Positions 1 through 62,543 of a stretch of DNA of 64,000 bases are shown here, in pieces. Where the stretch lies: the IMG/VR virus record IMGVR_UViG_3300045988_124978, positions 241-64,240 of that record. One strand, given 5' to 3'. A program made the translations under genes and the position numbers. The notes under the pieces were generated by a model. It was not told where the DNA came from and made no database searches. It was given only the letters and a program-made list of their open reading frames with translations. Position 1 is the first letter of the stretch, and the number at the start of each line of letters is the position of its first letter. This DNA comes from a virus.

Positions 1-116
1 TAAAAAATAAACTTCAAACTTAGTTTTTTTGTCGTCGTTGTTGTCTATATTATACGACGTAAGGAGTATAATATATATTCCTTATTCCTATTCTTATATA
101 AACTATCGTTTATATC

Positions 117-130
117 TACGCGCGCGCGTA
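117..130. repeat. perfect 14-bp palindrome TACGCGCGCGCGTA with alternating (CG)5 core
   Basis: read directly from sequence; alternating purine-pyrimidine tract (Z-DNA-prone) in otherwise AT-rich non-coding DNA. Confidence 0.8.
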
Positions 131-140
131 AGGGACGAAC

Positions 141-484
141 GGTTGCCTTTTGAGTTTTCTATGATTTAGAAAAGGCTACCCTTTTGAAAATAGAAAGGCT
201 ACCCTTTTTTATTTGTTCTAACTGCTTGAATTCCAAGGATAATTTAAAACGTGTATTTCTTATGTTTTTCAAATCGCTTAAACAAACTAAAACACATGTT
301 TTTTAATGAGTTTTCTAAAAAAGAAGATGAAAATCAACATAAAAAAGGGTTACTTTTTCTGCTGTTTTTCATAACTCTACCCTTTTGTTTTTAAAAAGGC
401 TACCCTTTTGTTTTTCATAACTCTACCCTTTTGTTTGGGTTATGAATACATAAAAGGTAGCCTTTATGTTGCCTTTTGAAAATT
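141..484. repeat. iteron-like array: direct copies of (G)CTACCCTTTTG(TTTTT) plus inverted/variant copies; flanking GTTGCCTTTTGA copies
   Basis: direct copies at 171-186, 194-210, 378-392, 401-415, 424-439; inverted-orientation variants AAAAGGGTTACTTTTT 341-359 and AAAAGGTAGCCTTTAT 452-468; GTTGCCTTTTGA at 143-154 and 468-479. Confidence 0.8.
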
Positions 485-490
485 GAAGTA

Positions 491-533
491 TATGAAAAAA
501 AACGACCTATCCTCGCGGACTGGTCGTTCAATA
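491..533 (-). terminator. rho-independent terminator downstream of minus-strand gene 612..980
   Basis: 7-bp stem AACGACC(501-507)/GGTCGTT(522-528), 14-nt loop; plus-strand A8 run 495-502 gives a U-tract immediately 3' of the hairpin on the minus strand. Confidence 0.6.
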
Positions 534-611
534 ATTATAAACCTAATCAATCATGAATAACTTCACACATCTAACAATACATTCAACATCTATAAGTAGA
601 TGATTTAGATA

Positions 612-980
612 TTACTCATCATCATCGTTGTCTTCAACATCTTCACCACAAAGCGCACGTAATTTGTCTTCGATTGTGTGTACTTTGACGTCTGCGTTAA
701 CGTCAACATCAATAGCCTTCATTCGTGGTGTGTGATACTCCAATATGCGTATTTCTGCATTTACTCGATCGTCGGGAGACAGCTCTGCCATATCTCTTTC
801 AAAATCAGAAATATTTACAATCTTGCCTTTCTGTTTTAGCTGTTTTGGCATAAAATATTCAGCAGAATGCGCTTTGAGATAGCCTTTTAAGGGGTTATCC
901 TTGTTCGGAGTGCCTTTTTTTCGGCCACCTGTTTTCATTCCCTTCATTGTTTTATCGTTTTTGTTGCGCCTTTGGCGCAA
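612..980 (-). CDS. hypothetical protein, basic Lys/Arg-rich N-terminus, acidic C-terminus (possible DNA-binding/regulatory)
   Basis: 122-aa ORF bounded by terminator (491-533) and divergent intergenic 981-1058; TAtcTTTG -7-like motif on minus strand at 999-1006. Confidence 0.5.
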   Translation of the reverse strand: MRQRRNKNDKTMKGMKTGGRKKGTPNKDNPLKGYLKAHSAEYFMPKQLKQKGKIVNISDFERDMAELSPDDRVNAEIRILEYHTPRMKAIDVDVNADVKVHTIEDKLRALCGEDVEDNDDDE

Positions 981-1058
981 AAGTTAAAAGACGTGGGCAA
1001 AGATACTCCACTAAATTAGCGCACGAATTTTAAGTATTGTAACATAAACAGATTAAAT

Positions 1059-1607
1059 ATGGGACTAATTGGAAGTATTGCTGGTGGCGCACTTGGTGCA
1101 GCTGGCAGCATTTTTGGCGGTATCAAGGCTAGTAAGGCAATGAGACGCGCGAAGAAGAATATTGAAGCGCAAAAGCAGGCTAATCAGAATTGGTATGATA
1201 GACGCTACAATGAGAACGCTACGCAGAGGGCTGACGCTCAGCGAATTTTGGCGAAGACAGAGGAGAGTATTAGGAACCGCAACAAGCAAGCAGCAGGTGC
1301 GCAAGCCGTGATGGGCGGTACTGACGAGAGTACCGCAGCTGCAAAAGCTGCTAATGCGCAAGCCTTGTCTGAGGCTGCATCGCAGATTGCTGTTAACGCG
1401 GACAATCGTAAGGATCAAATTGAACAGCAGTATCAACAGCGTAACGCGAACTATGACGCGCAACTTAATCAGCTTGAATTGGATAAGGCGAAGGCGATTG
1501 GACAAGCCGTGCAGGGTGTAGCACAAGCAGGTGCCGGTATTGCTAACGCATTTGACGAGAGTACCGCAGCTGCAAAAGCTGCTAACGCGGACTATCGTAA
1601 GGATTAA
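1059..1607 (+). CDS. Gly/Ala-rich N-terminal (glycine-zipper-like) and Gln/Ala-rich coiled-coil protein with internal repeats; possible virion-associated protein
   Basis: 182 aa; repeated peptide DESTAAAKAANA; ORF ends at TAA inside a degenerate tandem copy of its own 3' region. Confidence 0.5.
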   Translation: MGLIGSIAGGALGAAGSIFGGIKASKAMRRAKKNIEAQKQANQNWYDRRYNENATQRADAQRILAKTEESIRNRNKQAAGAQAVMGGTDESTAAAKAANAQALSEAASQIAVNADNRKDQIEQQYQQRNANYDAQLNQLELDKAKAIGQAVQGVAQAGAGIANAFDESTAAAKAANADYRKD

Positions 1608-2792: not shown

Positions 2793-5700
2793 ATGCCATA
2801 CGATAAAATAGACCAACTATATGATGCACTGAAGAAAGATGGTGCAGTCAGCAAGAGCCGTGAGTATTTCCGCAGTAAGATGCTTGCTCCTGGTAAGGAG
2901 GGCTATCAAAACCGCTTGCAACTTTACAATGCTCTGAAAGCGGATGGAGCCATAGAGAGCCCAACCTATGAAGAATTTGGCAAGCGTTTGGGGCTTCATG
3001 CGGTAAACACCGCACCTGTGTCTAAACCTCAGCCTCAAAAGCCTAATACAGATAGTCGTGTTGTGTTTATTAATACGCCTCAAAAGCCAGCGCAAGCGAC
3101 ACCTGCAAAACCGAAACCAACTCCAAGAAAGGCTCCAGCAAAACAAAAGGGAACACCGCTTACGCAGGTTGACAAGCAGAAAATGTTGGCTTTCGTTAAC
3201 AACATGAGGAATGAGACCAATGCTTCGCTTCAACGCTTCAATAACCGCATGGACTACCATAGAGCAAATGCTGGACTGAGAGTGCCTCATGTTACACTTG
3301 GTAAAAAGAACAGCGGTATAAAACTTGGTCAGAATAGTAAGGTTGTTGCTAAGAAACCACAGTTTAATCCGCAGTCAGGCAAGATGGAACAGACCTACAT
3401 CACGGAGAGCGGTAATGAGTACACCGACCGCAACTCTGCTGATTTGGAGCAGAATACCATCGACGCGTACAAGGATAGCATGAGCGTAAGTGGTCAGTTG
3501 CGCGAGGCTTATGCGGAGCGCGATAGATTGGACGAGGCAATGAAAAAGCGTATGAAGGAAATAGACGAACGTCCTAATCAGCGTTTCAACGATTTCATGC
3601 GTGAGTTTGCAGCTTCCATGACACCTGGTGCAGGTCCTGTGGGTGAGCAAGATGCGCGTATGTCGAAGTATGACAACGACGATGAATACATGCAACTCAT
3701 GGCAGCAGCTCGCAAGAACCATCAGACCATTCAGTTATTGGAGGACAAGAAAAACAACCAGATGTATAGTTTCTGGCACTCACTTGCTACAACAGCATCG
3801 AATGGTTACACTTTTTCAGACGGTATGAGCGAGATGCGCGATGCAACAGCCCTGCAGCGTGCATCAAAACATATAGACACGATTAACAAAAAGCGTGAGG
3901 AAGGTAAGACCTTGACGAAAGAGGAGCAGACTGCCGAAGCGGTGCTGAAGAACTTCGCCAAAGATAATGCTATGCAAAGCATGTATGGCGGAGATTATGG
4001 CGCATGGGCAAGGGCTGGTGGCATGACTGCCAATTCTTTTGACTTTATGAAAGACCTTATGCTCAATCCTGGTGCTGGAAGCATAGCTAAGGGTGTTATG
4101 CGCGGAACGGCTAAGGGAATGGCTAAAGGTATAGCTAAGTTGACTGGAAAGGAAGCCGCCAATTTATGGAAGAACGATGTGTTGCGCAGAACGCTGAAAG
4201 CGACAGGTGTGTTGTTGGGTGCTCATACGGCAGGTGCATATGTCAGCAATACAACAGGTATAGGTAGAACATCCGCCACAATGGGAACACTTGCTTCGGG
4301 AGAGGTCGGTGTGGACGACAAGGGTAATTATAAGGTGGAGAACGCTATGGGACTTCTCCCTGCATTTGCTGAGGCTGAGCGTCAACAAGCACGCGAGAAT
4401 GGCTCGGAGATGTTCGGTGAATTCATTCCTGGTGTAGGTGGCGTTGTAAAGAAAGGCTTGGAGAAAATAGGTCTTAGTAAGTTGTCGGGAGCTATGACAA
4501 ACATCGGCAACAAGGAATGGTACAAGCAGTATAGTAGATTGCTTGAGTCTGGCGGTTATAATGGTTTGCCTGGTGAGGCTTTGGAGGAATACGAGGGTTC
4601 GCTTTTCGATGCGCTTACTGGCCATGCCGGGGACGCATGGGACGACATGACGAACTTGCAGAACCATGTGGACATCTGGCTGGGGTGTGCTACCATGGGC
4701 GCACTGCTTGGCTCTGTACCGATGATGATGCAGGGGCACCATACTGCGCAATACTACCGATACAAGCACAACACGGACAAAGCCGACAACCTCGCCTCGT
4801 TCCGAATGACCGCAGAACGCTGGGAACCTCTGCGCGACGAGATTGATAACACAGACAACAGCAAGATGGCGGATGTGGTTACTGGTATCATCAACAACCC
4901 TGATCTTCACGTCGAGGAAAAAAAGGCAGCACTGAACTATGTGCGTAATCTAACTATGATGAGAGGTTACAACATTGCGCAGGTAAACAATGCCAGTGAT
5001 GAGGAGGAAGAGCGTCCTGAGGTGCAGAGCGTGAATGACAGTTACTCAAAAGGGTACGAAACCACGGAACCACAAGACATGAACGATACGAAGACTCTGC
5101 TTGAACTGAAGCGTGAGCAGGTTGCGAAAGAACATGGTATTGAGAATGTGGACGATGTGGACGCTCTTATTGGCGATGATCCTCTGCGCTACATTGAGGA
5201 GCAGAAGCAGTTGGGTAATACGGACAAGCTCCAATCTGTTATTGACTATGCCAATGCAAAATCGGCATACGATGGCATGGTGCAGCGTGTGCAAGATGAT
5301 ATTGACAATCGTGTGGAGGAAAGTAATGCGACAGTTAATAGCCGTGTTAATCGCCATGACGGAATGATACACCTTGCATCATTGAAGTTGAAGAACGAGG
5401 ACGGAACGGATAAGAAAGTGTATATTGTCAGCGGCAATGTAGTGATGTTCAATGACGGAAAGGGCGTTGATAGGGAGCAATCCGACAACACGATTGTTAT
5501 CCGTGATGTTGAGACTGGCGAGATGAAAGTAATTCCGCCAGACCTTATCCGTGGCTTGGACGCAGCCGTAGACCCCGAGGAGGAGAAAGCGAGAGCAAGG
5601 GAAGCAATCATTGAGGAGATGTCACAGACCGCAGCAAACAACGTGGACGGTGTGGTGTCTTTCAATGAAGGTGACACCTATACGTTGACAGAGGAGAATG

Positions 5701-8700
5701 GTGAACAGACACATGTGACGCTTGTTGCCAACGAACAGGGACTTGTGGACAATGGGGACGGAACTGTCAACGTAACTGTTGATGGTCAGAATGTTGTGCC
5801 TATGAGTATGGAGGAAATACAGAGTGGCGTGGATGCCACTAATATGGCTCGTACCATGCAAGCAGAAAAAGAACGTCAAGCTAATGAAAACGCACCAAAT
5901 TCAGATGAAAGTGTACAGAATGATGGCGAAAGTGTAGAAGAAAAGCCCGATGGTGTAGAATATGGCGTGAATGACACCTTTACGCTTCTTAATGGTGAAG
6001 ACGAAATCATTCATGGAGAGGTGCAGGGTGTTAGTGATGATGGTGTAGAAATCCGCACGGACGAGCCTTTGAACGGAAAGCGTGTGCAGATTATCCCTGC
6101 CGAGGAGTTTGAAGAAATGGTCGAGAGCATCAATGATGCGGACGGCAATCAAGTATGGGCGAGAGAATATGCCGAAGACACGGAAGATACGAATGAAACC
6201 GAGGAAACATCAGATAATTCCGTAACGCAAGACAATGATGTTGCTCCTGTAACTCCGACAGCGGATGAACTTGTGCGTATGGCTCGTGAAGGTAATGAAC
6301 TTGCACAGCATCAACTTGAAGCGCAAGGTGTGGAGTGGGAAGAACCTTCCGAACACCAGCCTACCGCATTGGAGCGTGTTCCCATCAACGAGGCAACACA
6401 GGAACCTATGTTTGAGAAGGCAGACCGCGAGACAGCCCTTGATGCGCTTAATGAACTTACAGGAGGTAATGAGGAAAATACTTCGGCTATTATTAACGCA
6501 CAGGTTGATCAAGCTACCAAAGCTCTTGAAACTTTGAAGAAGAAGGCCCCGAAAAAGAAAGCTCCTGCATTGACGGGTTCGCCAATGGAAATGTTGAAAG
6601 CGCAGAAGGAGGCTGACGATAGTTACAACACTGCCATTGAGGAGTATAACGCACAAGTAGCCGCAGCAGAAGAGAATCTGAATGCCTGGACGCGTATTTA
6701 TTCGCTCATGGGTGACCGCAAGCGTGCTGCACGTGAGCAGTTGAATGCAGAGCGTAATGCTATGGATGAGCAATTACATGCTGAGGCTGTAGCTAAATTG
6801 GAGGGAAACAAGCGCATTGCAGCTGAGAAAGCAGCCGAGCAAGCCGAAGTTGGCTCTCATGCCGTGAACCCTAAAATAAAGGGAAAGTGGGATGGTGCTA
6901 CTAAGGTTGAGGGCAATCCTAACGCTATTACTCTTGCAGATGGTTCAACGATCCGTGGTCACTACGTCCTCACTGAGGCAGGAGCAGCCACAGCCAGCCA
7001 TGACGTGAACAATGCCTACGAGCCTACTGAAGGTTTCCCCGTTGATGAGAACGGAGAGAGCGTGAATGACCGCGACTATAAGCGTGACACGGACGCACAA
7101 CGCATTGTTAGGGATATGGCAGACAGCTACGATAGCAGAGCTTTGCAGACACCTGTTATTGTTAGTAAGGATGGTGTTGTGCTTTCGGGCAATAACCGCA
7201 CTATGTCGGGAGAGATTGCAGCGAAGAACGGCACAGACAAGGCGTATGTGGAACACTTGCGCGAGTTTGGATCTATGTTCGGTTTCACTCCTGAGCAGAT
7301 TGATGGTATGCAGCATCCACGTGTCGTCTTTGTTCCTGATGAGGAATTGCCTTACGATGCAAGTACGTTTGCACGCTTCAATGCTGAACAGCAGAAGAAG
7401 CAGAGCAAGCCAGAGCATGCCGTGAAGCTTGGCAAGATTGTTCCTGACAATGTATTTGCAAGCATTGTTGGTGATATTAGTCGCTTTGACCGCATGTCGG
7501 ACTACTATGCCGATGGAAATGCAGTATCTTCTGCCATTGGTCAGTTATTGGAGGCTGGTGTTATTAACGAGATGCAGTTGCCGGAGCTTCGCACTGGCAA
7601 TGCTTTGTCGGCAGCAGGTAAGGAACTTATCGAGAACACACTTATAGGCAAGGTCTTCCAGGCTTCGCCCGATGCCGTGCGTCAAATAATCAGCACACCT
7701 ACGCTTCGCCAATCTGTTGTTATGGGATTGAACGAGATTTCCAATAACCGTACACTCGCCAAGAGCGACTATGACCTTAGCAAGGAATTGGCAGCAGCCG
7801 TTAATCTTGTAAATCGTGCCAAGTCAGAGTCACCCGAAATTTACAAAGAAGGTATGCCTGTATCTCCTTACGGCAGACAGCAAGGTTTGTTTGACGATGA
7901 ATACGGAGATAGCCGTGTAACTGATGGCGTTACGCTTATACTTGCTGACATATTGAACAGCGGTAAGCCGAGCGACTTGCGCAAGTTCCTTTCAATATAT
8001 AATAATGAAGCTGCTTCACCTGCAAGCGGTCAGTTGGACATGTTTAGCGGTGGGGTGACTTCAAAGGAAGAATTGTTGAACCGATTAAATGAATATTTTA
8101 GAAATGCAACACCAAAAGAACAACAAGCAATCGTTGATGCCTCAGTCGCAGAACGAAAGCAGAGAGCAGAAGCAGCTGCGCAAAATGCAGATGGCTTTGG
8201 ACGCGATGGAGAAGAGCCAACCGACATACAAGGAGAAAGTAATGGCGGAGTTTCAGAAGCACATGTAGGTTTGAATGATGACGAGGCAAATGAACTTTTG
8301 TCTCGCATGGAAGACAACACGTCAGAAATTCCACAAATGGAACTCAATCCGACTAATTGGATTGAGCAGTTTGGTGAAAATGGTATGGTGTCAACCCCAT
8401 TGGGTAAAGTAAAGATGGGTGAAAACCAAATTGCCAAGTTGTTTGAGAAAGGACGTAGCGAGCAGTTTGGCATGATAAAGCCTACACTTGAGCATCCGCA
8501 CGTTATTGTTGAAGTTCCATCAGAAGCCAGTGATGGCAATACGGAACGTGCAAGTTCGTTACTGTTCATAAAAACTTTCAATGGAACAAACGGCAAAAAA
8601 GTGTATTACTTCAAGTCGGTAACGGTAAAGAAAGACGGATTGGAAGTCAGCGTTAGCAGTCATTATGACCGAGCCAAACGTGTGAAAGAGGCGTTGAAAA

Positions 8701-11700
8701 AAGGGAAGTTGCTATACCGATTTGACGGTGGCGCACAGACCGAACGTCACCCTGCTGACGTTTCTGTGACAACTTCCCCAAAAAATACGCAGGGGAATGA
8801 TAATATGGTTTGGAAACACGCCGATGATGTTTCTGATGCCTCAGACGTGGCACAAGGCTTATACTCGTCGCAAGGGAATGTGTCTGACCTCGCTACCGAG
8901 GGCACGGATGCGCCTCAAACCAGTATGTCAAATAATATTTGGTCTGCTTCCGAAGTGCAGAATGACAACTCGGTGGTTGTCAGTGACGGTTTGCAGTCTG
9001 AGCCTATCACCGAAAACAGCTCTTCCTCTAACGGAGTTCCGTCCAAAAATGAAGTCCATTCCGTACCCGCATTGGGAGAAGGTACTAACACCGATACCTC
9101 CGAAGTTAATAGCGGTCATTCAGAGGGTGTAACCGCGCCAGCAGGAAACTCTTCAAAGACTTCTTTTGGCAAAGTTATAAATAAACAATTATCTCTGCAA
9201 GAAAATGGCGAAAAATCTTCTGAAAATGAAGGTGAAGCACCGTTGTCTGCCCAGATTGAAGCAGCCTCAGCCAAAGTGAACACTGAGCCTACCGAGGCTC
9301 AGAAGAAGGCAGGCAACTACAAGAAGGGGCATGTGCAAGTAGGTACGTTCGACATTACCATTGAGCAACCGCAGGGCAGCGTGCGTAAGGGCACTGATGC
9401 TAACGGCAAGCAATGGGAAAGCAAGATGAACAACACTTATGGCTACATTCGTGGTGCAGTGGGTGTTGATGGCGACCATATAGACGTGTTCCTCTCTAAT
9501 GATATTGATGGTTGGAACGGACGCAAGGTGTTCGTCGTTGATCAGTACAACCCCGATGGTAGCTTTGACGAGCATAAGGTTATGCTTGGTTTCAATGATG
9601 CTGACGAGGCTAAGGGCGATTATCTTGCCAACTATGGAAAAGGTTGGGAGAAAGGTCGTAGGATTGACGTGTCTGCCGTGAACCTCGAAGACTTTGAAAA
9701 GTGGATAGCATCGAGCAAGCGTAAGACTAAGCCTTTTGCAGAGTATGTAGTAGTGAAGAAAGATACTGTGGGTAAAAGCGGCAACATTTCTGATGAGGAG
9801 ATTGAAAACGCGGCATTTGCGCTTGGTTTGCATGGTGAGAACCAAACTCTAATGCGCCTTGAATTGGACAACACTCCCGAAAGAGCAAGGCAGATTCTTG
9901 ACAGAGCTAAGAAATGGAATGAAAAGAATGCAGCAAGTCCGACAACATTATCGAAAGATGAGACGACCTACACCATCACTCCTTCAACCTACACCAACAA
10001 GAAGGGAAAGACGAGCAATGTTTCTCTCCTTACCTTTGACCATGATTTGACAGCCGACCAAGAACGTGCCGTCAAAGAGTTTGCCAAGGAGAAATTGAGC
10101 GAGGGACGCTTTGCTAAGTCGCGCGGTTGGAAAGACCGTGAGAGTGGTGGTTGGATGTTCCGTAGTGAAGAGGACGCACGCAAGGTCGCTGAAATGGTTG
10201 GTAATGAGGAAGCCGTTGCGGATAATCAGCCGTTGACAGCGCAAGAACTCCGCGATGCTGTGGAACCTAAGAAACCAACTGCAAGCAAGAAGCCTGCAAA
10301 CCGCGTAGAGTTAGCAGATGTGGCAGAGCAAAAGCCGTCAGAGCCGACTAAAGCAGAGCAACCAAAGCAAGATAGAGAGAAGAAACTTGTCATTACTGAT
10401 GAGATGAAGCATGATGAGGATATTCTTCGTGAATTGCTTGGTATTGACGATGATGAGTTGGACGGAGGCATGAAATTCCGCGACCCTGATGCAATGACCT
10501 CTCAACAGAGACGTTTTGTGTATAATGCAGGTGTGAACTACTCTTTGGGATATATTGACCAAGGCTTTGTGAAATTCCCCGAATTTGCAAAGGCAATGGT
10601 CAACCGTCTCGGCTATAAAATCAAGCCGTGGTTGAAATCGTTTTATGAGGGTGTAAAACGTATTCCTGGTTACGACCAATCAATATTTACTCCTACAGAG
10701 GAGGTTGATGCCTTTGACGTGGAGAACTTCGACAAGCCTACCAAGGACGTGATGGCACAAGCCAACATGATCGTTGAGGAAGGCAAGGCACAAGTGGCCG
10801 CAGAAAAAGCAAATAATGAATTAAAGGAAATAAGAAATGAGCAACGAAAAGAAACCGAAAAGCAGACAGCAGCAAATACAGATGCTGTTGCAGCAGAAGC
10901 AAAGTCTGTTGCAAGCGAAGCAACGGCTCTCGCAGAAACTTCAAGCGACGAGCAAGCCCTCACCGGAGCAGCAGAGCGAGTAGATGAAACCCTCGACAAG
11001 GTAAATGAGCAGCTTGCCCTACTTGGCTACTATGAGGCTGACGAGGTGGAGAAGGACTACAACGAGGCATACGGCTACATGCGTAATGCCGAGAAGAAGG
11101 CCGTCAAGGATGCAGCCAACCTTGCAAGCCAGTTGATTTCTGATTTGAACCTTAACCACTATGAGGCTTCTCACTCAAAGCAGACGGATAAGAAAGGCAA
11201 TCGTAAGAAAAAACCACTTGCAGTTTCCAACATTTCCCCTATTGGAGGTGATGTGTCTATACACCTGCCATTAGAAGAAGGACGCGAGCTGTATCTGACA
11301 ATAGGCGTTGAGCCAAGAGCAGCCAAGGGTGTAGATGGCTTTGGAGGCAGCGACCTTGAAGTTACTCACATCATGTTCCGTGTTGACCATCCTGAAGGCA
11401 CCGGCAATGACCGCTACGGTAGGAATGTCTTCGTTGACAGCAATGTTACGTATTCTGACCTTCTGAAGCAGGTGCAGCGTGAAACCTACAAATATCTTAT
11501 AGGTAGTGGCGTGACCAATGAAGGAGAGTATGCAGCAGGTGACGAGGTGCAGTATTCAACCGATGGTGGCCGCACATGGACTGATGCAGTTGTAGTGCAG
11601 CCTAACGATGAGGGCGGCATCCGCATTGACACCGGCCTTGCTCCTGTCATGTGGGTTAATGCTCACCCAGACCAGTTGCGTCATAAGCCGAGCGAGTCAG

Positions 11701-14700
11701 CCGAGCCGAAGCATGAAGCCGTTGGCGACTTCTACGAGGATGGTATTAACGAGAATGCAGTTGCGGCATTGCCAGAAGACACTGCCATACAGCTCCATGT
11801 TGTTGACATTCTCAATCCGGGCATGACCGACCATTCAATGAAGTCGAAGATCGAGAGCCTCAACACATTGCTTCCTATGATTTCAGACAAGAAATTGTCG
11901 GAACTCGACAAGGAGTATGGCGACGACAAGGATATGGGCACCCATATCAAGGCAGAGGTGGCGAGACGTGCCAAGGATGGCGGCGTTCAGCCCACATCAT
12001 CAGAGAAACCAGCAGACAAGCCAAAGCCTGCATCCAAGAAAAAAGCAACTAAGAAAGTTAAACCAGAGCAGCCTGTAGGTGATTTGTTTGCCGGGCTGTT
12101 TGATAATACATCAGACAATGGATTACAAGGAAATGATGAAGCGGTACGCACCGAAACAGTGCCAGCCGACAATAGTGGACAACAGCAAGGACTACGAGAA
12201 AGCCAAGGAAGCCCTCGCAAAACAGCTGCACAAGAAGGTGGAAGACCTGACGGAGGACGAGGAGGACAAAGCACTGGCAAAGATAGGGCTGTGTCCGCTG
12301 GACTTCATGGACTGACCCAGCCGAAGAACACACACAACAACCATTCAGAGCGTGGCGCAGACCATGCCCCTACTTCGGTGAATGGCAGAATAGAGGCCAA
12401 TATCAAGGCTATTGAGTTGGCGCATGAATTACTTGAGAGCGGTGAGACAGCCACTCCCGAGCAGATGAGTGTGCTTAGACAGTTCAGTGGTTGGGGTGGT
12501 CTTGGAGCCGCTTTCAGCGACGGAGGCTATGACTGGAAACAGCGTGAGCGTAACAAGAAAATACGTGAGTTGCTTGGAGAAGAAGCCTACGAGCAAGCCG
12601 TTATGAGTGCTAACAGTGCCTACTACACCCCTGCATACGTTGTTGATACACTTTGGGACATTGCAAATCAGCTTGGTTTCAAGGGTGGCAACATCTTGGA
12701 GGGTTCTGCAGGTATTGGCAATATTTTGGGTCAGATGCCAACAATGGTAAGCGAGCGCAGTAACATTCACGCCATTGAGATAGACGGCACATCTGGCGGC
12801 ATTCTCTCATTGCTCTATCCCGATGCCAAGGTGGAGATACAAGGTTTTGAGCAGACACGCATACCTAATGGCAGTGTGGATTTGGCTATTACCAATGTAC
12901 CTTTCGTTACTGGGTTGCGTGTGAATGACACCACAGGCGACAGTGACCTTTCCAAGAAGTTCCACAATATCCACGACTTCTGTATAGCCAAGAATGTGCG
13001 TAAGTTGCGTGAGGGTGGATTGGGTATCTTCATTTCTTCAAACGGCACACTCGATAACAGCAAGGCTTTGCGCGACTGGGTTGTGAACGAGGGAGGTTCG
13101 GACTTCATCGGAGCATTCCGCATGAACAATAAGACCTTTGGCGGTACAACCGTCACGTCGGACATCATCGTTATCCGCAAGCGAGTGAATGGTCAAAAGT
13201 CGGCACAAGCTATTGACGTGAGCACAATCAGCGGTGAGCGTACAGCCGAATATGAAGAACCAGGCGCACGCAAGGCTAAGCAACTCTCCATGGACTACAA
13301 CAAGTATTTCATTGAGCACCCCGACCACATGGCAGGTGAAATGCGCTTTGCATTTGAGAAAGGTGACACATTCAGACCTACGAGCAAGGGACTCTACCCG
13401 GTAAGCGGTAAAGACCAAGGCAAGATGTTGGCTGACTTCGTTAAATCGTTCACTGAAGAAGATAACAGCCAAATGACCGCCACAGATCACCACGATGTTT
13501 CACTTGTGCTTGATGCGTCAGCGGACGGCAAGAAACTTGGTGAAATGTATATGAAAGACGGTAAGATTGTTTTGGCCAGCTTTGGCGGTTACTATCCTCT
13601 TGAAGTAAACGACAAGAAGATAAAGGGACATACTAAGCAAGAGTGTTTTACTGCTTATGCTGCCATCAAGACAGCTTTGGCTGATGTAATGAAGTATCAG
13701 ACAGAGAATGAGGATAATGAAGGACTAAAGCCATTGATTGCCAAACTCAACAAGGCATACGACAGTTTTGTGAGCACATACGGTCACTTCACAAAAAACA
13801 ACCAATTAGCGTGGTTGCGTAATGATGTGGACTATCCAAATGTATTCTCGTTAGAGACTTATAAGGAGCAAGGAGACGGCAAGGGAGGCGTTGTCAAGAC
13901 CTACGATAAGGCCGATGTGATGAAAGGCCGTGTTGTGGAAAAAGAAATCGAACCGCACCCAGAGAATGTTAAGGACGGTGTTGTTGTAAGTATGTTCAAG
14001 AACGGACGCATAGATGTTCCTTACATTGCAAACCAACTCGGAAAGAGTGAGGCGGAAGTAAAACGCGAAATCATTGATAGCGGACTCGGTTTTGAAGACC
14101 CGACAACACGACAGATGGAAGTATCATACCAATATCTGAGTGGAAACGTAAGAGAAAAGCTGAAACAAGCAGAGGCCAACAATGAGAATGGCGAATACAG
14201 CAAGAATATCAAGGCATTGCAGGATGTAGTTCCTATGAATATTCCTGCACACTTGATAGACTTTACACTCGGTTCGTCATGGCTTGACCCAAAACTATAT
14301 GACGAGTATGTGAAAGAGCGTACCGACATAGACGTGCATTTCACAGCAGCTGGTGGTACATGGTTCATGAAAGCCCCGACCTATGGTGTGAACGTTGAAA
14401 AGAACCGCGCAATGGGTATTGTGAGTGAAATGCTTAAGAAAACAATAATGGGTCATGAACTCATTGAAGCTGCTATTCAGAACAAAAGTATTACTATTTC
14501 GCGTACGGAAAAGCATTATGATGGTACAACGGAAACCATCACCGACCGCGAGGCTATGGCAGCATGTGCAGCCAAGATAGATGAGATACGTCAGGACTTC
14601 AAGGATTGGGCGCGAGGAAAGATGCAGCGTAACGCGGACTTGTCAGCACGCATAGAGCAAGAGTATAACGACCGCTTCAACAACTATGTTCCTATGAGCA

Positions 14701-17700
14701 TACCTGAAGACTTTGTACCTGAATACTTCGGTGGCGCAACACACAAGTTCAAGATGCGCCCACACCAAGGTAAAGCCATTGTCCGAGGTACGATGCAGCC
14801 GTTAATGCTTGCCCATGAGGTTGGTACTGGTAAGACATTCACCCTTATCTCCACCGCAATGGAGATGCGCAGACTCGGCACGGCACGCAAACCTATGATT
14901 GTGGTACAGAATGCTACCGTAGGACAATTTGCAGCCTCAGCCAAGGAACTCTATCCAAATGCCAAGGTGCTTGTGTTGGATGATAACGATCGTGACGCAG
15001 AGGGACGCAAAAATTTCTACGCCAAAATAAAGTACAATGATTGGGATATGGTAATTATTCCTCAGAGTACATTGGATAAAATTCCCGATAGTGACGAGCG
15101 TCAGATGCAGTTTGTGCAGGATAAGATAGACGAGAAGATGCGTGTACTTGAGCAGATGCGTGAGGCTGACACCAACGGTAAAGACCCTATAACAAGGCGT
15201 GCAGAAAAAGAATTGGCAGATCTGCAAGTAGAAATGGCTGAACTGTCAGAAGAAATTTCGAAGAAGCGCACAGCTAATAACGAAAAGAAGAAAGCTGTTG
15301 CCAAGCAGAACGCAGCTGTTAAGGCGCAGGAAATGCTCGAGCGTAGCACGGATGATGTGGAGAACTTTGACGATATGGGCATTGATGCCCTACTCATTGA
15401 CGAAGCGCACGAATACAAACACCTTGGTTTTGCTACAGCCATGCAGCGCGGTGTGAAAGGCGTTGACCCTTCATACAGTAAGAAGTCGCAAGGCGTGTAT
15501 TTGAAGACGCAAGCCATATTGGAGAAGAACAATGGACGCAACGTTATCTTCGCCACAGGTACGCCTATCAGTAATACAGCAGCAGAGATTTGGACTTTCA
15601 TGCGTTACCTCATGCCAAAGGACACCATGAAGGAATACGGTATTTACTACTTTGACGACTTTGTGCGCAACTTCGGTAATATACAGCAGATGCCCGAGTT
15701 CAAAACAAATGGCAAGTTCAAGGAAGTGAACCGATTTGCAGGATATGTGAATTTGCCTGAGTTGGTTCGTATATGGTCGAGCGTATCGGATACGGCATTA
15801 ACCAAAGACCAGACGGAGCTTGTTGAGAAAATACCAGAAATGGAGGGTGGCAAGGCGCAGGACATTTATCTACCACAGACACGCGCATTGCGCAGCGTAA
15901 TGAAATATGTACGCAAGCAGTTGGACGATTTCGAGCAGATGAGTGGCAAGGAGAAGAAGGAAAACAGCAGTATACCTCTCACCATGTATGGCATTGCTCA
16001 GAGAGCAGCTGTTGATGCACGATTGGTACAAGTAGATGCTGAGGATGATCCAAGAAGCAAGACCAACGAAGCTGTGCGCCAAACTTTGCGTTCGCTGAAA
16101 GAAACGAACGACTACAAGGGTACGGTAGCCATCTTTGCTGACAGTTACGAGAACAAGCATAGCGGTTTCAACTTGTATGAGGATATCAAGAAAAAACTAG
16201 TTTCGCAAGGTGTTCCTGAAAGCGAAATCGTTGTGATGAAGTCAGGCATGAAAATAAAACAGAAGCTTGACATTTTCGACAAGGTAAACCGAGGCGAGGT
16301 GCGTGTTATACTCGGCAGTACTGCTACCCTTGGAACTGGTGTGAACATACAAGAACGTCTGCACACCCTTATCCATCTTGACGCGCCAAATCGCCCAATG
16401 GATTACACGCAGCGTAACGGACGCATCTTGCGACAGGGCAACCTGCACAAGCAATGGAACAAGCCTGTTCGTGTACTTCGTTTCGGTGTGGAAGATAGTC
16501 TTGACGTAACTGCATATCAGCGTTTGAAAACAAAAGGTGCGATTGCTGATAGTGTTATGGAGGGTGACCGACTGATGCAAGACAGCATGAACAACCGTGT
16601 GCTTGAAGAGGAAGAAGATGTGTTTGGCGACACTGTTGCTCAACTCTCAGGTAGTGAGTACGCTCTACTGAAGAACAATGCGGAGAAGAATGTGCGCAAG
16701 TATGAGAGCCGTAGGAAGCAGTGGGAAGCCGACCAAGTTTATATCCACTATGCCAAACCAAGGATCGAGGGACAGATAGAGGCAGCAGAGCAACGAGCAG
16801 AGGAAGCTAACGCACACCTGCATGCAGTGCAAAAGGCATTCCCCGGTGGTAAGTTCACTGAGATAACTGTAGGCAAGCTAAAATTTGCTTCGGTTGATGG
16901 CATGGCAGACTTCATCAAGGAACACAACAAAAAGATTCTTGATGTGGTAAAGGAAATGAAAAAGACACCTGTCACTAAAACTCAGACACAAACACTCACC
17001 TTATCATTGGGAGGTTATGACTTCGTTGTCAAAACAGAAATGTCACGAGAGACGGTGAATAATGGTGGGTCGTTGTTTGCCGAGATACACCGTAAAATGA
17101 GCTATTCATGCCCTGAACTTGGACTGAATGATGTACCTGTAAAGCAGTCGCTATTGCGCAACGCCATTGAGGATATTACCGAGAATGTAATCACAGGCAA
17201 GGATTTTGCTGAGCGTGTCGACGTTGCCACACGTATGATACAGCACGATAAATCAGAGTTGGAACAAGTAAAGCAGCGTGAAGGTAAACCATTTGAGTTT
17301 GAGAAGGAACTTGAAGAAGCCAAGCGTCAGTTTGAGGAATATTCCGAGGCCATGAAGGTAGAAATGGCAGAAAAGGAGAAGAAGTATGCCGAAATGGACG
17401 CAAGTGTTGAGGCAGCTACTGATGTCGTTGCAGACGATGAGGACGAAGCCGACGATGGTAACAGTAAACATCGTATGCTTGAAGATGATACACCTAATGT
17501 AATGGAGAATGATTCTAACGCGATGGTGGATCGAGTAACTGAGTTGTCAGAACGTCTTCACACTCCTGTACGCATCATACGTACTGAGGAAGAAGTGGCT
17601 GCTTTGCCGAGTGCGCGTCAGCGCAGAATGAAGGGTAGCTTTAATCCTTTGACAGGCGAGGTGACTATTGTTGTTCCCAACAATGCTAACATGGCAGACA

Positions 17701-20700
17701 TTGAGAATACGTTTGTGCATGAGGTTGTGGGTCACGATGGTTTGCGCGTACTGTTCCCTGATGAGGCGAAGCTGAACAATGCTCTTGATGAACTTTATCG
17801 TGTATCGAATGAAGGTATTCAGCAGACCATTGACCGCATGGCGCAGAAAATGTACGATGCCGAGGTGGACCGCATACGTGAGAAGAAGCGCAAAGAGCAT
17901 GAGGCAAAGGGCGAGGATACAAACGCTTCATACTATGCTGACATGGCTGAGGCACATGCCGAGGCGAGCAAGAAACGCGAACAGTTCAAGCGTGATGCCA
18001 CCGAGGAATATGGTGCCGACCTTGCAGGACGTATTGGTGAAAAAGGCTTTGAGCAGATGAGTGCTGAGGAACTTACCTTCTGGGGTAAGTTGAAAGCCAT
18101 GCTCCAAAAGGCTCTACAAAAATTGTTGGATGGATTGAAAATCCCCGGCAGAAGAAAGTGGGGGGATAAGGACTGGGCATTTGTGCTGCATGAAGCTTAC
18201 AAGCGTAAGAAGAATGGTGGTAAGCCTACTGTGTTCGATGCAGCTGATACTGAGGTTATGCGCAGGAAAACAGGGTTTGGAGATGTGATGTTCAGTGAGA
18301 ATAGACGTTCTGGAGGTTCTAGGTATATCGAGGATATGAAACAGAAGGTTGAAGAATTGTTTGAAAAAGCCAGGACAGGAGAGTTTGTCGGGAAACCTGC
18401 AAGCATCGGTCGGCTTAGCGCAGATGGCAAGGTATACTTGGAGCAATTGTCAGGATTGCATTTCAAGGAATATGTAGACTTTGTTCTCAATCCTTCGGAT
18501 TTGAATCACATCCGTGCTGATCACTATGGTCAGAATGAAAAGGATAAGGGTAATAATATTCCTTTGACTGATGAGGATATTCAGAATATGGTGGACGTGC
18601 TGAACCAGCCTGACGGCATACTCTATGGCATTGATAAGAATGATGGACGAAAGTTGTTCTTCTTCTTGAGAGATGCAGGTAACGGATTGTATAATCTGAC
18701 GGAAGTGTGCAGTACAAAAAAAGGAAACCTTACTGCAAAGAGTTTCTTTAAATCAAAAAAGAAAGGTATCGACCAGCGAGTTATGGAAATTAGACAATCC
18801 CTACTCCCTACGTCCGTAACGTACTCTGGTGAATCCCTTTCTTCGGATGCAAAGATACCGCCTTTGTTTGATATTAACGAAGTTTCTGACGAAAATGTTT
18901 CAGATGAGGGCATTATGTTCAGTGATGGTAAGAATAAGACCGGTGAGCCAAAGCCAATAGGACACAGCACATTCGGAAGCGTGTACAACCAGTTCAAGGG
19001 CAAAGTTCTTCAAGCCGTGAAATTCTTGCTCAATCACGAAAGCGGAGATTTGCTTGGTGTTTTCCATAGAAATGATGTAGGAGATATTGATATGGTTTGG
19101 GGTGATGAAGGTGGCGGATTCTGCCATATTCTGAACAAGCATATCAACGACAAGGACTTTCCTACTGTCAAGGATTTGGTATCTCGCATAGAAGACATCA
19201 TAAACAAAGGAGAGGTTGACGAACGACATTCTAATGCCGACAAACTTGTATTGGTGAAGGATGGTTACCTTGTTACGATACGTCGTAACGTAAGAGAAAA
19301 GGGCATAAAAATAGCCGACAAGAACTGGGTTCTGACGGCTTATAATAAAGATGCACCTGCCACCACCAAGGCTCCCGTTGATGGCACTTATGGGAGCACG
19401 GCTGTCGCTCCCGGTACATCTTCGGATGCAAAGTTAGCAACAAAGTCTGAGATTAACGAATTTTCAGACAATAATGTTACAGATGATGGCATTATGTTCC
19501 GCGACGGTGACAGTGAGGAGTATGACAAGGCAATGGCGCGTGACATTTATGAGCAGCGTGTAAGACGTGGTATGTTCCAAACGCAAGAAGCTGTGCAAGA
19601 TAGTATGCTTGGACTGAAGGAAGCTATGGACGCGATACTGAAGGCTGAGGATGAAGATGTTTATATAGAAGACGTGGCAGGATATGAGAATGCTTACCTT
19701 GGCGAGAATCGCCTATCTTCTGTTAATCAGGCTGAGTGTTCTGCCTTTGCGCAAACTTTGTTTAAGCCTTTGCTCGAGGAAGTAGCTAAACTTGCTAAGA
19801 CTGCTGACGAACGTGCAGAGTTGACTGATTACATGATGGCTAAGCATGGGTTGGAACGTAATCAGGTTATGGCGCGGAGGGCTGCTGAGAAGGATGCTCG
19901 TTCGGAGTTCTCTGCAGAGTTGCTTGCTGCTCAGCAGGCTGTAGACAATGATCCGTTAGACCAAGATGCGATTGATGCTCTTGATGATGTGACGCAGCGA
20001 ATGCAAGATCGTGAAGATGAGCTTTACTTGAAGAACCGCGAACGTGACTTTGCTGGTCTTACCGCTTTGACAGGAATGAACAATGTGCTTGATGCGGAAG
20101 CAGAGGCGCAACAAATGGTATCTGACTACGAAAGTAACCATTGGGTTCCTGTTTTGTGGAACAATGTTAAGGCTGTAACAAAGGCTACATTGCAGAAGAC
20201 ATACGAAAGTGGACTCATTAACAAAGCAACATACGACGACATCAGCGGAATGTATGAGACTTATATCCCTTTGCGTGGCTTTGACGACCAAACAAGTGAC
20301 GAGGTGTATGCTTACTTGGCTGATAAGCATAGTGCATTTAATGCTCCTATCAAAACAGCTAAGGGTCGTAAAAGTAAAGCTGACGACCCATTTGCTAATA
20401 TGGAGGCTATGGCTGAAAGTGCGATTATGCAGGGTAACCGCAATGTGCTTGTGAAGCAGAAGTTTTTGAACTTTGCTTTGAACCATCCGAGTGATTTGGT
20501 TAGTGTGAGTGATTTGTGGTTGTATCATGATGATGTGTTAGATGAGTGGCAACCCATTAACACGGGTGGATTTGTTGGTACAGAGGCTATTGAAGAAGAT
20601 GACAGTCCTGCTGAAGTAGAGCGTAAGATGCGTGATTTTGAAGAAGCGATGGAAAATGCTGCAAAAGTTGACCCCGACCATTTTAAGAAGCAGAAGGATC

Positions 20701-24702: not shown

Positions 24703-26832
24703 TTAAATTGAAGCTTCAGAAACAGGTGTATGATTCTTTGTAAATGTACATGCAACGATTGGCACCCATGATGGCATTTCCATTTCATAATAACAGATAT
24801 GAAGACCGATAGCACGCGTCATAAGCAAGTCGTCGTGTTTACCTGTTATAGCTCCATACGCACCATTCTGTTTGCGCTCATAGGTATTGTATTCATCAAG
24901 GCAACGTTTGTCACGCTCGATATACAGACGTTCGCGAACCACTTTAATAAGCGTAGATATAATCATCGGCTTTGTTGATATGTTGGTGTGGAACCCGTAT
25001 TTACGTGGCGCACCTTCTCGTATCTCATCAGCGGACTGTTTACGCGCGTAGAGGTTGGGATAAATATCCGAAATCTGATTGAGAATATATTGCGATTGGT
25101 CTCCACCTTCCACCTGACGTTCCTTGTCGTGAGTTTCTAAGGTGTTTGATTCAATGACAAGAAGAGAGTTGTTGTAGAACGCTGCTATCTGTGCAGCACG
25201 CCAAGCGAGGCGGTCAATGTCGCAGTGTCCGTACCATTGTGCAACCACAGATGGAGGTTCGCTACCATCAATCATACTAATGCGGTCGAATACCACGATC
25301 ACAGACCAGTCAGCCTTATTAGAACGTCCACCCACATCTACCACTGTAAGATAACGATTCTTAACTTCGTAATCATCAAATTTTTCGGGCATTGCCCATA
25401 TAGATAACAATCCTTGTTTGTCATCACGAAATCTGAGATTAGAGAGCGCGTCTTTGCCTTCGTCTCCATCGGCATACACATCGCCAATATATCGAGGTGG
25501 GATGCAGAACTTTTCAAACTTCTTTACTAAGTATTTGTCGAAAACCATTGAACCAGAATGGACGAAAGCCTCTACATCGTCAGAAGGGTACTCCGAAGCC
25601 ATTACACCAAAATCCGCTCTACCTGCTCTTTCTTCCACATACCAGTTAATAGCCTCTAATGTAGCCCCTTTTTCCCACAAAGACCACAAATATTGTCCAC
25701 TTTCTTCACGGTTTGACGGAACGTATGCGTTTTCTCTGTTCGCGTATAGTTTTTGGGCAAACTCTTTTTTCTCGTCCGTAGATGTGAAAGGTTTAGAGTA
25801 TTGCTCAATTTGGAACCATGCAATAAATAACGCTTCGTACTGAGACTTAATAGACGGATCTGCAGCATCCGTGTATTCGGTGTGAAAGAAATTACCTGTA
25901 CCATTAGCTGTGCTTTCCATCACGATCATCGTAAAAGGTTCGAGCAGCATACCAGAGCATGCAGAACGAACAATATCTTGTGGCGACTTTCCATCCGTTT
26001 TTTTCCACAAACCCACCTCTGACAAGTGAACAAGAGAATAAGCACCACCACGACATCCGTCAGGACGCTCAGCAGTACCTACCTTAATTTTACAATTACG
26101 TTGTGGAACACGATGCGTAGAACCAGACTTACCTACGCCTACAAGTTTGGGCTCGTTTTCGGAATAGGTTTCTCCTAACTTATGAAGGAACTCAACTGGA
26201 TATTTGCTAATCATAAGGTCGAACATATCCTTAATTTCGTCAGAAGCCGTACCCTGGTGTGCAATGATAAGCGAATTAAGTCCCTTTCGATGGTTGAATT
26301 GAAGCCATGCCATATAGAGTTGTGTGGTTGTTGAACCACCCCACTGACGTGCTTTCAACAAAATAAGTCGAATTGGTTGCCGTGCTTTTCTCTTCGCTTC
26401 AAAGCGCGATACCAAAATGCGCTGCGGATAGTAAAGTCGGAACAGCACGTCTTTACCAGCCTTCTTGTTGTGGATATATACGAGCGTTGCAGCCCAGAAT
26501 GGGAAATCGTGTTTGAAGCGTAATCGTATGAGTTTACGCGACACCTTGACATAATCTATTTCGTTAGATGTTACACCAAGTACAGATGTCAGAAATTTAT
26601 CAATAGAGCCAGCCTTAACGAGTTTTTCGACCATTGGTATATCCATCATCTCTACAGGGAGCCATTGGACGGGTATGGCAAAATCGGAGATACACACACG
26701 CACACGCTCTCCGATAGACCCCTCTCCTGTAATAGGGTCGAAGTGCGCAAACATTACGCTATTCCTTCGATCGTTCTCATTGAGCAGCTGTGCAATTTCT
26801 GTATCTGTTGTATTGATTCTCATACCATCCAT
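24703..26832 (-). CDS. terL: terminase large subunit
   Basis: 709 aa; P-loop-like LKARQWGGSTTT, Walker-B-like LIIAHQ...SDE, C-terminal acidic nuclease-like VVDVGGRSNKAD; typical size and position. Confidence 0.75.
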   Translation of the reverse strand: MDGMRINTTDTEIAQLLNENDRRNSVMFAHFDPITGEGSIGERVRVCISDFAIPVQWLPVEMMDIPMVEKLVKAGSIDKFLTSVLGVTSNEIDYVKVSRKLIRLRFKHDFPFWAATLVYIHNKKAGKDVLFRLYYPQRILVSRFEAKRKARQPIRLILLKARQWGGSTTTQLYMAWLQFNHRKGLNSLIIAHQGTASDEIKDMFDLMISKYPVEFLHKLGETYSENEPKLVGVGKSGSTHRVPQRNCKIKVGTAERPDGCRGGAYSLVHLSEVGLWKKTDGKSPQDIVRSACSGMLLEPFTMIVMESTANGTGNFFHTEYTDAADPSIKSQYEALFIAWFQIEQYSKPFTSTDEKKEFAQKLYANRENAYVPSNREESGQYLWSLWEKGATLEAINWYVEERAGRADFGVMASEYPSDDVEAFVHSGSMVFDKYLVKKFEKFCIPPRYIGDVYADGDEGKDALSNLRFRDDKQGLLSIWAMPEKFDDYEVKNRYLTVVDVGGRSNKADWSVIVVFDRISMIDGSEPPSVVAQWYGHCDIDRLAWRAAQIAAFYNNSLLVIESNTLETHDKERQVEGGDQSQYILNQISDIYPNLYARKQSADEIREGAPRKYGFHTNISTKPMIISTLIKVVRERLYIERDKRCLDEYNTYERKQNGAYGAITGKHDDLLMTRAIGLHICYYEMEMPSWVPIVACTFTKNHTPVSEASI

Positions 26833-27220
26833 TTTTTATTCGGTAAATAAACTCTCCGACCGTGCGTGCGGTGAGGTAAAATTTCGGTGCAGGTTGGTTT
26901 ACGATAAGTGCCACCAACTCATATACCGACTTATCTGGTTGTTGTTCGTGCATCACAACAAACCTTCTGAAAATTTCCTCAAACATTTCTCGCTTATTCT
27001 TTCTCATTCGTGGCATAGGTCTCCCTGCAGCCATTGCCGAAATAACAATAGCAGCTCTCTCCTCGCTTACCCAAAAACGCGAGGACGGTGATTGTGCCAC
27101 CAATTCAAAAATTACAGGCATGACGATAATACTTGCCTCTGATAGTTTTTCACGATAGACCCTCATAAGGTCTTCATTTCGCTCGCGTGTAAACTCAAGT
27201 ATGCTTCCGAAATATTTCAT
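26777..27220 (-). CDS. hypothetical protein upstream of terL (candidate small terminase subunit/DNA-binding)
   Basis: 147 aa; 3' end overlaps terL start by ~55 nt; position only. Confidence 0.4.
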   Translation of the reverse strand: MKYFGSILEFTRERNEDLMRVYREKLSEASIIVMPVIFELVAQSPSSRFWVSEERAAIVISAMAAGRPMPRMRKNKREMFEEIFRRFVVMHEQQPDKSVYELVALIVNQPAPKFYLTARTVGEFIYRIKNGWYENQYNRYRNCTAAQ

Positions 27221-60732: not shown

Positions 60733-60857
60733 TGTTTCGATATTTATTTATAACTTTATGGTGCAAAGCTATCAAATATATTCGTGACTAACAAATTTAT
60801 TCGCCATTATTTTTTAGCCAAAACGAGCACTTGTTTTAGTAATAACTACGTAAATCA

Positions 60858-62493: not shown

Positions 62494-62543
62494 TATAGGA
62501 AATCACTTGTTGTGGTTTGTTATAGGTTTATTGGGAGTAGCTA

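Follow-up and report, generated by a model that had tools for sequence, protein, structure and literature searches.

The stretch of 64,000 nucleotides analyzed here (positions 241 to 64,240 of IMG/VR record IMGVR_UViG_3300045988_124978, in its full length termed the window) holds an integrated temperate prophage of Bacteroidales (gut Prevotella/Bacteroides) that is related to Bacteroides phage BKO1-TP3 and follows the same gene order. Near the left end of this prophage, a gene-free stretch of about 500 bases carries two clusters of short dyad-symmetric sites that flank the most AT-rich DNA of the phage. The module has a well-defined anatomy, is conserved throughout the phage family with site types that are specific for individual lineages, is independent of integration and co-occurs with an organizer-type replication module. 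We tentatively interpret it as a cis-acting lytic replication origin of the iteron type that would be served by a replisome organizer of the DUF6291/DUF7833 type, and assign a probability of roughly 45% to this interpretation, which is derived from sequence comparison.

Anatomy of the gene-free region

The original prediction, made from the letters of the window alone, had listed a (CG)5 palindrome, five direct copies of a short motif, two inverted variants and two copies of GTTGCCTTTTGA for this region, and all of them were found again in place and far above chance expectation. The palindrome TACGCGCGCGCGTA, i.e. TA(CG)5TA, at 117-130 is the sole match in 64 kb even when 2 mismatches are allowed. 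The core motif CTACCCTTTT(G/T) starts at positions 176, 199, 377, 400 and 423, always on the plus strand, and with at most one mismatch it has 7 matches in the window as compared to 0.83 expected (7 or more in 0 of 100 shuffles). Exact copies of GTTGCCTTTTGA reside at 142-153 and 468-479, and the inverted variants are situated at 343-358 and 452-467.

The repeat unit can be refined to a 14-bp near-palindrome, AAAGGsTAsCCTTT, termed dyad site in the following. Three copies are perfect (starting at 171, 194 and 395), while the imperfect ones comprise an inverted copy with 1 mismatch at 452, two copies at 372 and 418 in which the right half only is present, and degenerate copies at 137, 344 and 463. 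When up to one mismatch is tolerated, every match within the 64 kb falls inside 171-465. About nine sites are present in total, three in cluster 1 and five to six in cluster 2, and the two clusters are 150 bp apart (centre to centre). The spacings between neighbouring centres amount to 34, 23, 150, 28, 23, 23, 34 and 11 bp and thereby approximate multiples of ~11.4 bp with the exception of the 28-bp step, so that multiple repeats are in helical phase. Nowhere else in the prophage do repeated 8-mers form a cluster. Open reading frames (ORFs) longer than 47 aa are lacking in the gene-free region, and the stretch spanned by short ORFs (210-300) is not conserved among relatives.

From left to right, the module consists of an AT-rich left block (24% GC) with three short inverted repeats, or four when the (CG)5 palindrome at its end is counted, followed by that palindrome, a degenerate site, a GAGTTTTCT box, two perfect sites, a 134-bp spacer, five to six further sites and the terminator of a small gene, gp58. 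The 80-bp windows richest in AT within the prophage part are those at 241-281, inside the spacer. The individual elements are as follows (T1, T2 and T3 are site types listed further below; elements without a strand carry no sign):

33-59: inverted repeat a (CGTCGT ... ACGACG), first element of the left block; predicted hairpin (20-135 folded as DNA, z = -3.9)
60-84: inverted repeat b (TAAGGAGTATA / TATATTCCTTA) with 11-bp arms; kept in T1, T2 and T3 lineages
96-115: inverted repeat c (ATATAAAC TATC GTTTATAT) with 8-bp arms; invariant among T1 relatives
117-130: TA(CG)5TA palindrome, an alternating purine-pyrimidine GC block; unique in the window
137-153 (+): degenerate site S1, including GTTGCCTTTTGA at 142-153; T2 and T3 have a site of their own type at the same position
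152-160 (+): conserved box GAGTTTTCT, copy 1; identical 9-mer in the same place in T1, T2 and T3 lineages
171-207 (+): cluster 1, two perfect dyad sites AAAGGCTACCCTTT at 171-184 and 194-207, 23 bp apart
210-343: AT-rich spacer of 134 bp, by composition a candidate DNA-unwinding region; 24% GC as compared to 44% in the prophage
308-316: second GAGTTTTCT box, inside the AT-rich spacer
344-479 (+): cluster 2, comprising a perfect site at 395-408, right halves alone at 372-385 and 418-431, a degenerate site at 344-357, an inverted one with 1 mismatch at 452-465 and a GTTGCCTTTTGA variant at 463-479
492-529 (-): intrinsic terminator of gp58 and right boundary of the module; hairpin plus U8, -17.9 kcal/mol, z = -4.0; hairpin kept in relatives

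Conservation and lineage-specific site types

Relatives were collected with one protein query, the gp14-like protein encoded next to gp58, and comprise the best 80 of 138 genome matches and the best 80 of 378 viral matches. A 1009-aa protein was discarded as a marker for comparison, its search for relatives having yielded near-identical contigs only. In nearly all of the ~160 loci compared, the gap between the integrase gene and gp58 exhibits the same order of elements, and in all array-bearing lineages examined this order reads terminator, AT-rich inverted repeats, alternating CG tract, one or more arrays and terminator. An alternating CG/CA tract of 12-30 bp occupies the position of the palindrome in every array-bearing lineage examined, its sequence not being conserved. 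Among the T1 relatives, with protein identities of 70-85%, hardly any change is seen in the left block (28-165) and in cluster 2, in contrast to the spacer, which has diverged except for its GAGTTTTCT box; the left block is found in T2 and T3 lineages, too. Invariance of left block and cluster 2 next to a diverged spacer is the signature of a functional cis element; purifying selection acts on the non-coding DNA here. A comparison with related phages had been suggested along with the original prediction, and as the motifs are conserved its outcome favours a function. A cluster of protein-binding sites, as had been put forward there, fits the invariant sites, the diverged spacer and the recurrent architecture with its lineage-specific sites.

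The sequence of the sites varies by lineage. At least six types can be distinguished, and further ones exist beyond these:

T1 (the window's own): AAAGGsTAsCCTTT
T2: AACCCCATAGGGGTT
T3: AACCCCTTGGGGTT plus TTAGGGTTTTG half sites
T4: ATTTCTTCCGAAGAAAT
T5: AAATGTACATTT
T6: 10-17 direct copies of CGTTTGGTT in an 11-bp phase

In the T6 arrays (contigs L137, positions 220-520, L109, L105 and L142), the 10-17 direct CGTTTGGTT(CA/GG) copies follow each other with an exact 11-bp period and a few CTACCCTTTTG half sites of the T1 type are embedded.

The site type is not tracked by gp58, the integrase, the XRE-family regulator, gp57, gp56, the first 1700 aa of a giant protein encoded further downstream, the candidate small terminase subunit (TerS), the large subunit (TerL) or a scaffold candidate (27369-28106), nor by any ORF in the 37-62 kb part, with the replisome organizer as a weak exception. 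Gp58 does not set site specificity: contig L090 has T2 sites, yet the N-terminal two-thirds of its gp58 match the version from a T1 relative (L163).

A candidate replication origin

The replication genes of the prophage, encoding organizer, DnaC-like loader and helicase, are located at 51-56 kb. The two that matter most here are:

51293-52141 (-): DnaC-like helicase loader (PHROG phrog_50)
52149-52757 (-): replisome organizer with DUF6291 N-domain, basic linker and DUF7833 C-domain (PHROG and Pfam matches)

No iteron-like array is present inside or beside these two genes. A homolog of the organizer is encoded in all site-type lineages tested (6 of 6). The reverse situation is met in BKO1-TP3, an isolated and propagated temperate phage (PMC12694917). 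This phage retains homologs of TerS, TerL, portal protein, gp58, the HU-like and AbrB-like proteins and the helicase. Its initiator differs (Lin1244_N), and neither an organizer nor a homolog of the DnaC-like loader is encoded in its genome. In its int-gp58 gap two terminators only are found, with no trace of the module, the left block or the CG tract. We consider this presence/absence pattern more telling than the organizer variants described below, because the phage without the module has a different initiator and lacks organizer and loader. In addition, site types number at least six within one and the same module order, as would be expected of an origin-initiator specificity pair. Also in favour of an origin, a T2 array and a T2-type organizer occur together in contig L255, although its virion gene set is divergent and its gp58 truncated. 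Replication origin was one of three functions offered in the original prediction, besides a packaging site and an operator array, and it is the best supported of them: the array is the sole repeat array in the prophage, flanks its most AT-rich DNA, co-occurs with the organizer/DnaC-like module and is missing from BKO1-TP3.

According to the mechanism proposed here, dimers of a phage initiator, most likely the organizer, would bind the 14-bp dyad sites and act together with the adjacently encoded DnaC-like loader. The two clusters, being in helical phase, may give rise to a nucleoprotein complex that flanks the spacer (134 bp, 24% GC) on either side. The spacer would then melt, the host replicative helicase would be loaded there by the loader, and replication would start in this region. 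The left block with its three AT-rich inverted repeats and the alternating CG tract could be an auxiliary structural element common to all lineages, possibly a cruciform or Z-DNA structure that is sensitive to supercoiling, or a GC clamp restricting the extent of melting.

Helix 3 and the basic linker of the organizer come in a separate variant for each site type. All four T1 members tested (4/4) have ENGKK-FGKLGGRP without insertion, while the organizers of both AACCCC..GGGGTT types carry a 3-residue insertion at this point. The T6 organizer does not have the GKLGGRP motif, and for T4 the C-terminal ~50 residues alone could be aligned. The type-dependent residues map to a predicted long third helix and to the basic linker in an AlphaFold model of moderate confidence (predicted local distance difference test score, pLDDT, 71).

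A number of observations weigh against an origin that is served by the organizer. The pattern just described is weak, confounded by phylogeny and based on few independent lineages, and does not amount to clean covariation. Organizer N-domains are almost identical in L180, which is a T1 relative, and L186, which is a T3b phage, with a few differing residues and a 3-aa indel, although the sites of the two are very different. The organizer model does not yield any significant structural match in the PDB, known origin-binding proteins included. On the circular map, the array lies 12-13 kb away from the organizer gene, at the opposite end of the prophage, and many phage origins are located inside or beside the initiator gene. 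The array furthermore acts as a cassette able to recombine independently of neighbouring genes, which is awkward if a distantly encoded protein has to match it. A search for DnaA boxes in the region did not reveal any. Finally, absence of the module is documented in one lineage only, the BKO1-like phages.

Prophage boundaries and integration

The left junction of the prophage is provided by contig L383, which is 100% identical to window positions 1-1259. Host nqr operon, a 75-bp sequence (L383 7602-7676) and the gene for a 375-aa tyrosine integrase follow one another there. The stop codon of the integrase gene, which is located outside of the window, lies 70 bp ahead of window position 1. The 75-bp sequence is a direct repeat flanking the prophage and constitutes the attachment (att) core, with one copy upstream of int and the other at 62458-62532. 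Since the repeat recurs there, the prophage has a size of about 64 kb, and the last 1.5 kb of the window (after ~62533) are host DNA.

The same phage (99% identical) also occurs with another integrase module, in a ppdK-attL-int498-75-aa ORF arrangement that is followed by the same non-coding region. Two integrase versions thus exist among contigs L383, L384, L386 and L086, one of 375 aa after the host nqr operon and one of 498 aa, together with the 75-aa ORF, at the 3' end of ppdK. The point at which the integrase modules are exchanged is no further than ~100 bp from window position 1. In longer contigs of the same phage, the left boundary of the region is the integrase terminator, and the region sits between the convergent terminators of the integrase gene and gp58.

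Alternative explanations

The main rival to a replication origin is a cos or pac site, and the genes relevant for this possibility are:

24703-26832 (-): TerL, divergent, 709 aa, with KARQWGGST Walker A, HLSEVG, STANG and HDD motifs (PHROG phrog_2, E = 2e-17)
26777-27220 (-): TerS candidate, a 147-aa ORF upstream of TerL and likely the small subunit

According to this explanation, the small terminase would assemble on the repeat clusters and the large subunit would cut nearby, for example at the GC-rich palindrome, such that packaging is initiated. The region borders the block of virion genes, the palindrome with its flanking AT-rich inverted repeats is a plausible target for cleavage, the conserved terminase could recognise the conserved left block, and two clusters around a central stretch are reminiscent of P1 pac and lambda cosB. 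Ends of contigs also appear to point in this direction: 27 of the 80 related IMG/VR contigs (the best 80 of 378) terminate within ~1.4 kb upstream of the gp57-like gene, and L087 (IMGVR_UViG_3300045988_125242, positions 1-47) begins with an Illumina adapter, GTGACTGGAGTTCAGACGTGTGCTCTTCCGATCT, that is joined to phage DNA at the equivalent of window position 520, within the hairpin of the gp58 terminator. These ends, however, are spread over ~1.2 kb instead of being fixed, an equal pile-up exists at the TerL/portal junction, and a 66-kb relative has been assembled as a circle straight through the region. Scattered positions and the second pile-up are most simply explained by assembly breaks at mosaic junctions, and we reject the contig ends as evidence for physical termini. 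Moreover, TerL and the TerS candidate are encoded 24-27 kb away from the region, the TerS candidate is 81-88% identical across T1, T2 and T3b phages without tracking site type, and BKO1-TP3 has homologous TerS and TerL though module, left block and CG tract are missing. The packaging option of the original prediction is weakened by these findings, and we regard it as unlikely.

Rather improbable, too, is an array to which a host factor or another small DNA-binding protein binds to form a non-replicative nucleoprotein complex, be it a transcriptional insulator or silencer that separates the virion genes from the lysogeny module, a centromere-like site or a site for genome compaction. No phage protein clearly covaries with the sites, so that a host factor or another phage protein may be involved; the 10-17 direct repeats in 11-bp phase of some lineages resemble parC/ParR-type and omega-type arrays, and candidate binders are encoded by the phage in the form of an AbrB-like (40063-40437) and an HU-like protein (53585-53866). 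Both of the latter are conserved across site types and also present in BKO1-TP3, which lacks the module. A centromere is needless because the phage integrates, no partition ATPase gene was noticed among the ORFs scanned, and the AT-rich core as well as the conserved inverted-repeat/CG block would be left unexplained. As no examined protein tracks site type cleanly, one may also think of a self-contained, swappable cis element whose dyad arrays are matched by no phage specificity protein and which is either read by a host factor or acts via DNA structure, with cruciform-prone palindromes and a Z-DNA-prone CG tract under supercoiling; we judge this to be improbable. Very unlikely is a structured non-coding RNA or a series of weak bidirectional terminators, in which each unit of A-tract, GC-hairpin and T-tract forms a small hairpin in RNA or single-stranded DNA. 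It is true that dyad symmetry persists as the sequence changes by lineage (AAAGGGTACCCTTT, AACCCCATAGGGGTT, TTCTTCCGAAGAA, AAATGTACATTT), that runs of A and T flank most units and that the region lies between convergent genes. The stems comprise 4-6 bp only, however, several palindromes have no loop, and some lineages contain direct 11-bp repeats without any dyad. An Rfam scan of the window did not return any RNA family, the Bacteroides -7 promoter motif is absent from the arrays (a simple sigma-70 promoter/terminator scan is uninformative for Bacteroidales), and strong terminators already flank the region. The original prediction had also considered an operator array for the XRE-family regulator (60858-61235), and this, or an operator for another immunity repressor, is highly unlikely. 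Dyad sites of 14 bp are typical of helix-turn-helix dimers and the XRE-like protein has an N-terminal helix-turn-helix match, but the XRE proteins of T1 relatives, with the same sites, and of T2 phages alike are ~40% identical to that of the window. Dyad sites are nowhere near the XRE gene, which itself resides near the opposite (right) end of the prophage and has repeats of its own, two direct copies of CTAwCAAATwTATTCG 19 bp apart at 60769-60803 (starting at 60769 and 60788), which are probably the immunity operators; the location of the array between convergent terminators and the lack of a Bacteroides-type promoter motif inside it add to this. An attP site with arm-type integrase sites in a 2+3 layout like that of lambda P1, P2 and P'1-3 is refuted by the prophage junctions. 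The two-cluster layout would fit and the region adjoins the gene for a tyrosine integrase with an Arm-DNA-binding N-domain, but integrated prophages carry the region uninterrupted (host ppdK-attL-int498-array and host nqr-attL-int375-array) and the 75-bp att repeat is located elsewhere. The same array is found beside two unrelated integrases, T2 phages combine a 97% identical integrase with different sites, and likely arm sites (GCTTACAA / TTGTACAA) adjoin the true att core upstream of int.

Some further observations concern the terminase genes and the contig ends. TerL has a homolog in BKO1-TP3, gp51, that is annotated as 'tail spike protein', and the nearest known TerL proteins stem from Stx-converting E. 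coli phages and Vibrio phages with ~24% identity. At the second hotspot of contig breaks, L396, L404, L407, L414, L416, L418 and L438 end a few bases from the TerL stop codon, at the convergent TerL/portal junction. The 1009-aa protein encoded at 37037-40066 (-) (PHROG 32516) was considered as a terminase and rejected, as it has no Walker or other ATPase motif and looks like a structural, probably tail, protein; it is preceded by the gene for the AbrB/SpoVT-like DNA-binding protein at 40063-40437 (-), at the junction of the late and early blocks.

Comparison with known systems

Among well-known origins, the lambda origin with its O initiator and P loader offers several parallels to the module. 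Its several sites of ~19 bp are internally dyad-symmetric and follow each other at a distance of about two helical turns, with AT-rich DNA adjoining them and a palindrome close by. Their sequence varies among related phages, and, as proposed here for the organizer and the DnaC-type loader, initiator and loader recruit the host helicase. In contrast, ori-lambda is located inside the O gene, while the array described here resides 12-13 kb away from the organizer gene, in a gap that is flanked by terminators. Furthermore, our sites form two clusters on both sides of AT-rich DNA, the organizer belongs to the DUF6291/DUF7833 type and is not an O homolog, and covariation between sites and initiator is weakly indicated. 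An organizer plus loader system is also operated by Bacillus phage SPP1 (G38P and G39P, acting on oriL/oriR) and at the non-coding origins of lactococcal and streptococcal phages. SPP1 oriR is similar in being situated in non-coding DNA far from the replication genes, and repeated boxes beside AT-rich or bent DNA are a shared feature of these origins. We did not find any sequence relation or detectable structural relation to these origins, and for the conserved inverted-repeat block and the alternating CG tract we know of no described counterpart in them.

Iteron plasmid origins (P1 oriR/incA, F, RK2, R6K) share repeats of 17-22 bp at a spacing of ~22-23 bp, often in two clusters, and an AT-rich unwinding element beside a GC-rich stretch. 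In these plasmids, the Rep gene lies beside the origin and is subject to autoregulation via the iterons, and DnaA boxes are commonly present, whereas the phage region has neither an adjacent rep gene nor a DnaA box; its sites are palindromic and those of the plasmids asymmetric. Taken against ori-lambda, SPP1 oriR and the plasmid origins, the module is set apart by its conserved alternating CG tract, the distant initiator gene and the sites on both sides of AT-rich DNA.

Lambda cos (cosN/cosB) and P1 pac also feature clusters of small-terminase sites beside or around the cleavage site, and GC-rich cohesive ends, but are positioned beside or inside the terminase genes, and their specificity follows the small subunit; here, the distance is 24-27 kb and covariation is not seen. 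The centromeres of the R1 parC/ParR type are similar in having two clusters of short repeats in 11-bp phase, and 10-17 such repeats are found in some lineages of our phage family. They differ in that parMR-like genes were not seen adjacent to the array, in that the phage integrates, and in that the sites of the window are 14-bp dyads at 23-bp spacing. The centre of the telomere resolution site of N15/KO2, TACGCGCGTA, likewise consists of a TA(CG)nTA core flanked by AT-rich DNA. A protelomerase target (telRL) was nevertheless rejected, as the symmetry ends after 14 bp as compared to the 40-56 bp palindrome needed, no protelomerase gene was seen and the phage integrates by means of a tyrosine integrase.

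Relevance for gut Bacteroidales phages

The region is ordinary in kind and undescribed for this phage family. Our literature search did not retrieve any published description of it, and the paper reporting the isolation of BKO1-TP3 (PMC12694917) is silent on termini, attP and the terminase or origin of that phage. Prophages of this family are common in gut Bacteroidales (Prevotella, Bacteroides, Muribaculaceae and others) of humans and animals. Should the region indeed be an origin, it would provide a handle for phage-derived replicons in the genetically difficult Prevotella and Bacteroides, aid the reading of coverage peaks from induced prophages in metagenomes and give a first function to a DUF6291/DUF7833 protein. 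The site types, fixed in position but specific for each lineage, would make up a natural system for the switching of origin specificity by cassette exchange. Should the region turn out to be a different signal, for instance one for packaging, knowing which of its parts are conserved and which vary would still guide the choice of mutations. A cis element read by a host factor or through DNA structure would represent an undescribed type of phage origin or of signal for genome processing that is common to a large family of gut Bacteroidales prophages.

Neighbouring genes and host DNA

The gene that delimits the module on its right side is:

612-947 (-): gp58-like small gene whose product has a basic N-terminus and an acidic C-terminus; homolog of BKO1-TP3 gp58, always adjoining the module

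Pfam, PHROG and PDB do not provide a match for gp58, and a search among 5.8 billion proteins returned unnamed "hypothetical" homologs only, without Pfam domain. The region had originally been placed just upstream of the virion-gene block; this has to be corrected because the minus-strand gene at 612-947 intervenes. To the right of gp58 follow, in this order, the genes for a T7 gp14-like internal virion protein (weak match), a 377-aa protein (1656-2789), a 6603-aa polyvalent protein and the portal protein. The polyvalent protein is encoded by a single ORF at 2793-22604 (+), between the genes for the 377-aa protein and the portal protein. It has Pfam matches to InPase, WH_1, DUF8437, helicase domains, PBECR1/3 and LPD38, to which some variants add a weak match to ddrB-ParB, and its N-terminal 1200 aa are highly mosaic among close relatives.

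At the other end, the ORF-poor and AT-rich host DNA just outside attR contains short GTCAC-based repeats at 62540-62580, 62697-62720, 63838-63862 and 63966-63986 of the window that continue in contig L241. The repeats take the forms ATGTCACCC (three times), GTGACAAGTGACAAGTGACA and GGTCACTCGGTCACTGGTCAC, and GGTCACTTTT occurs four times beyond the window; a gene for an insertion sequence-like transposase follows in L241.

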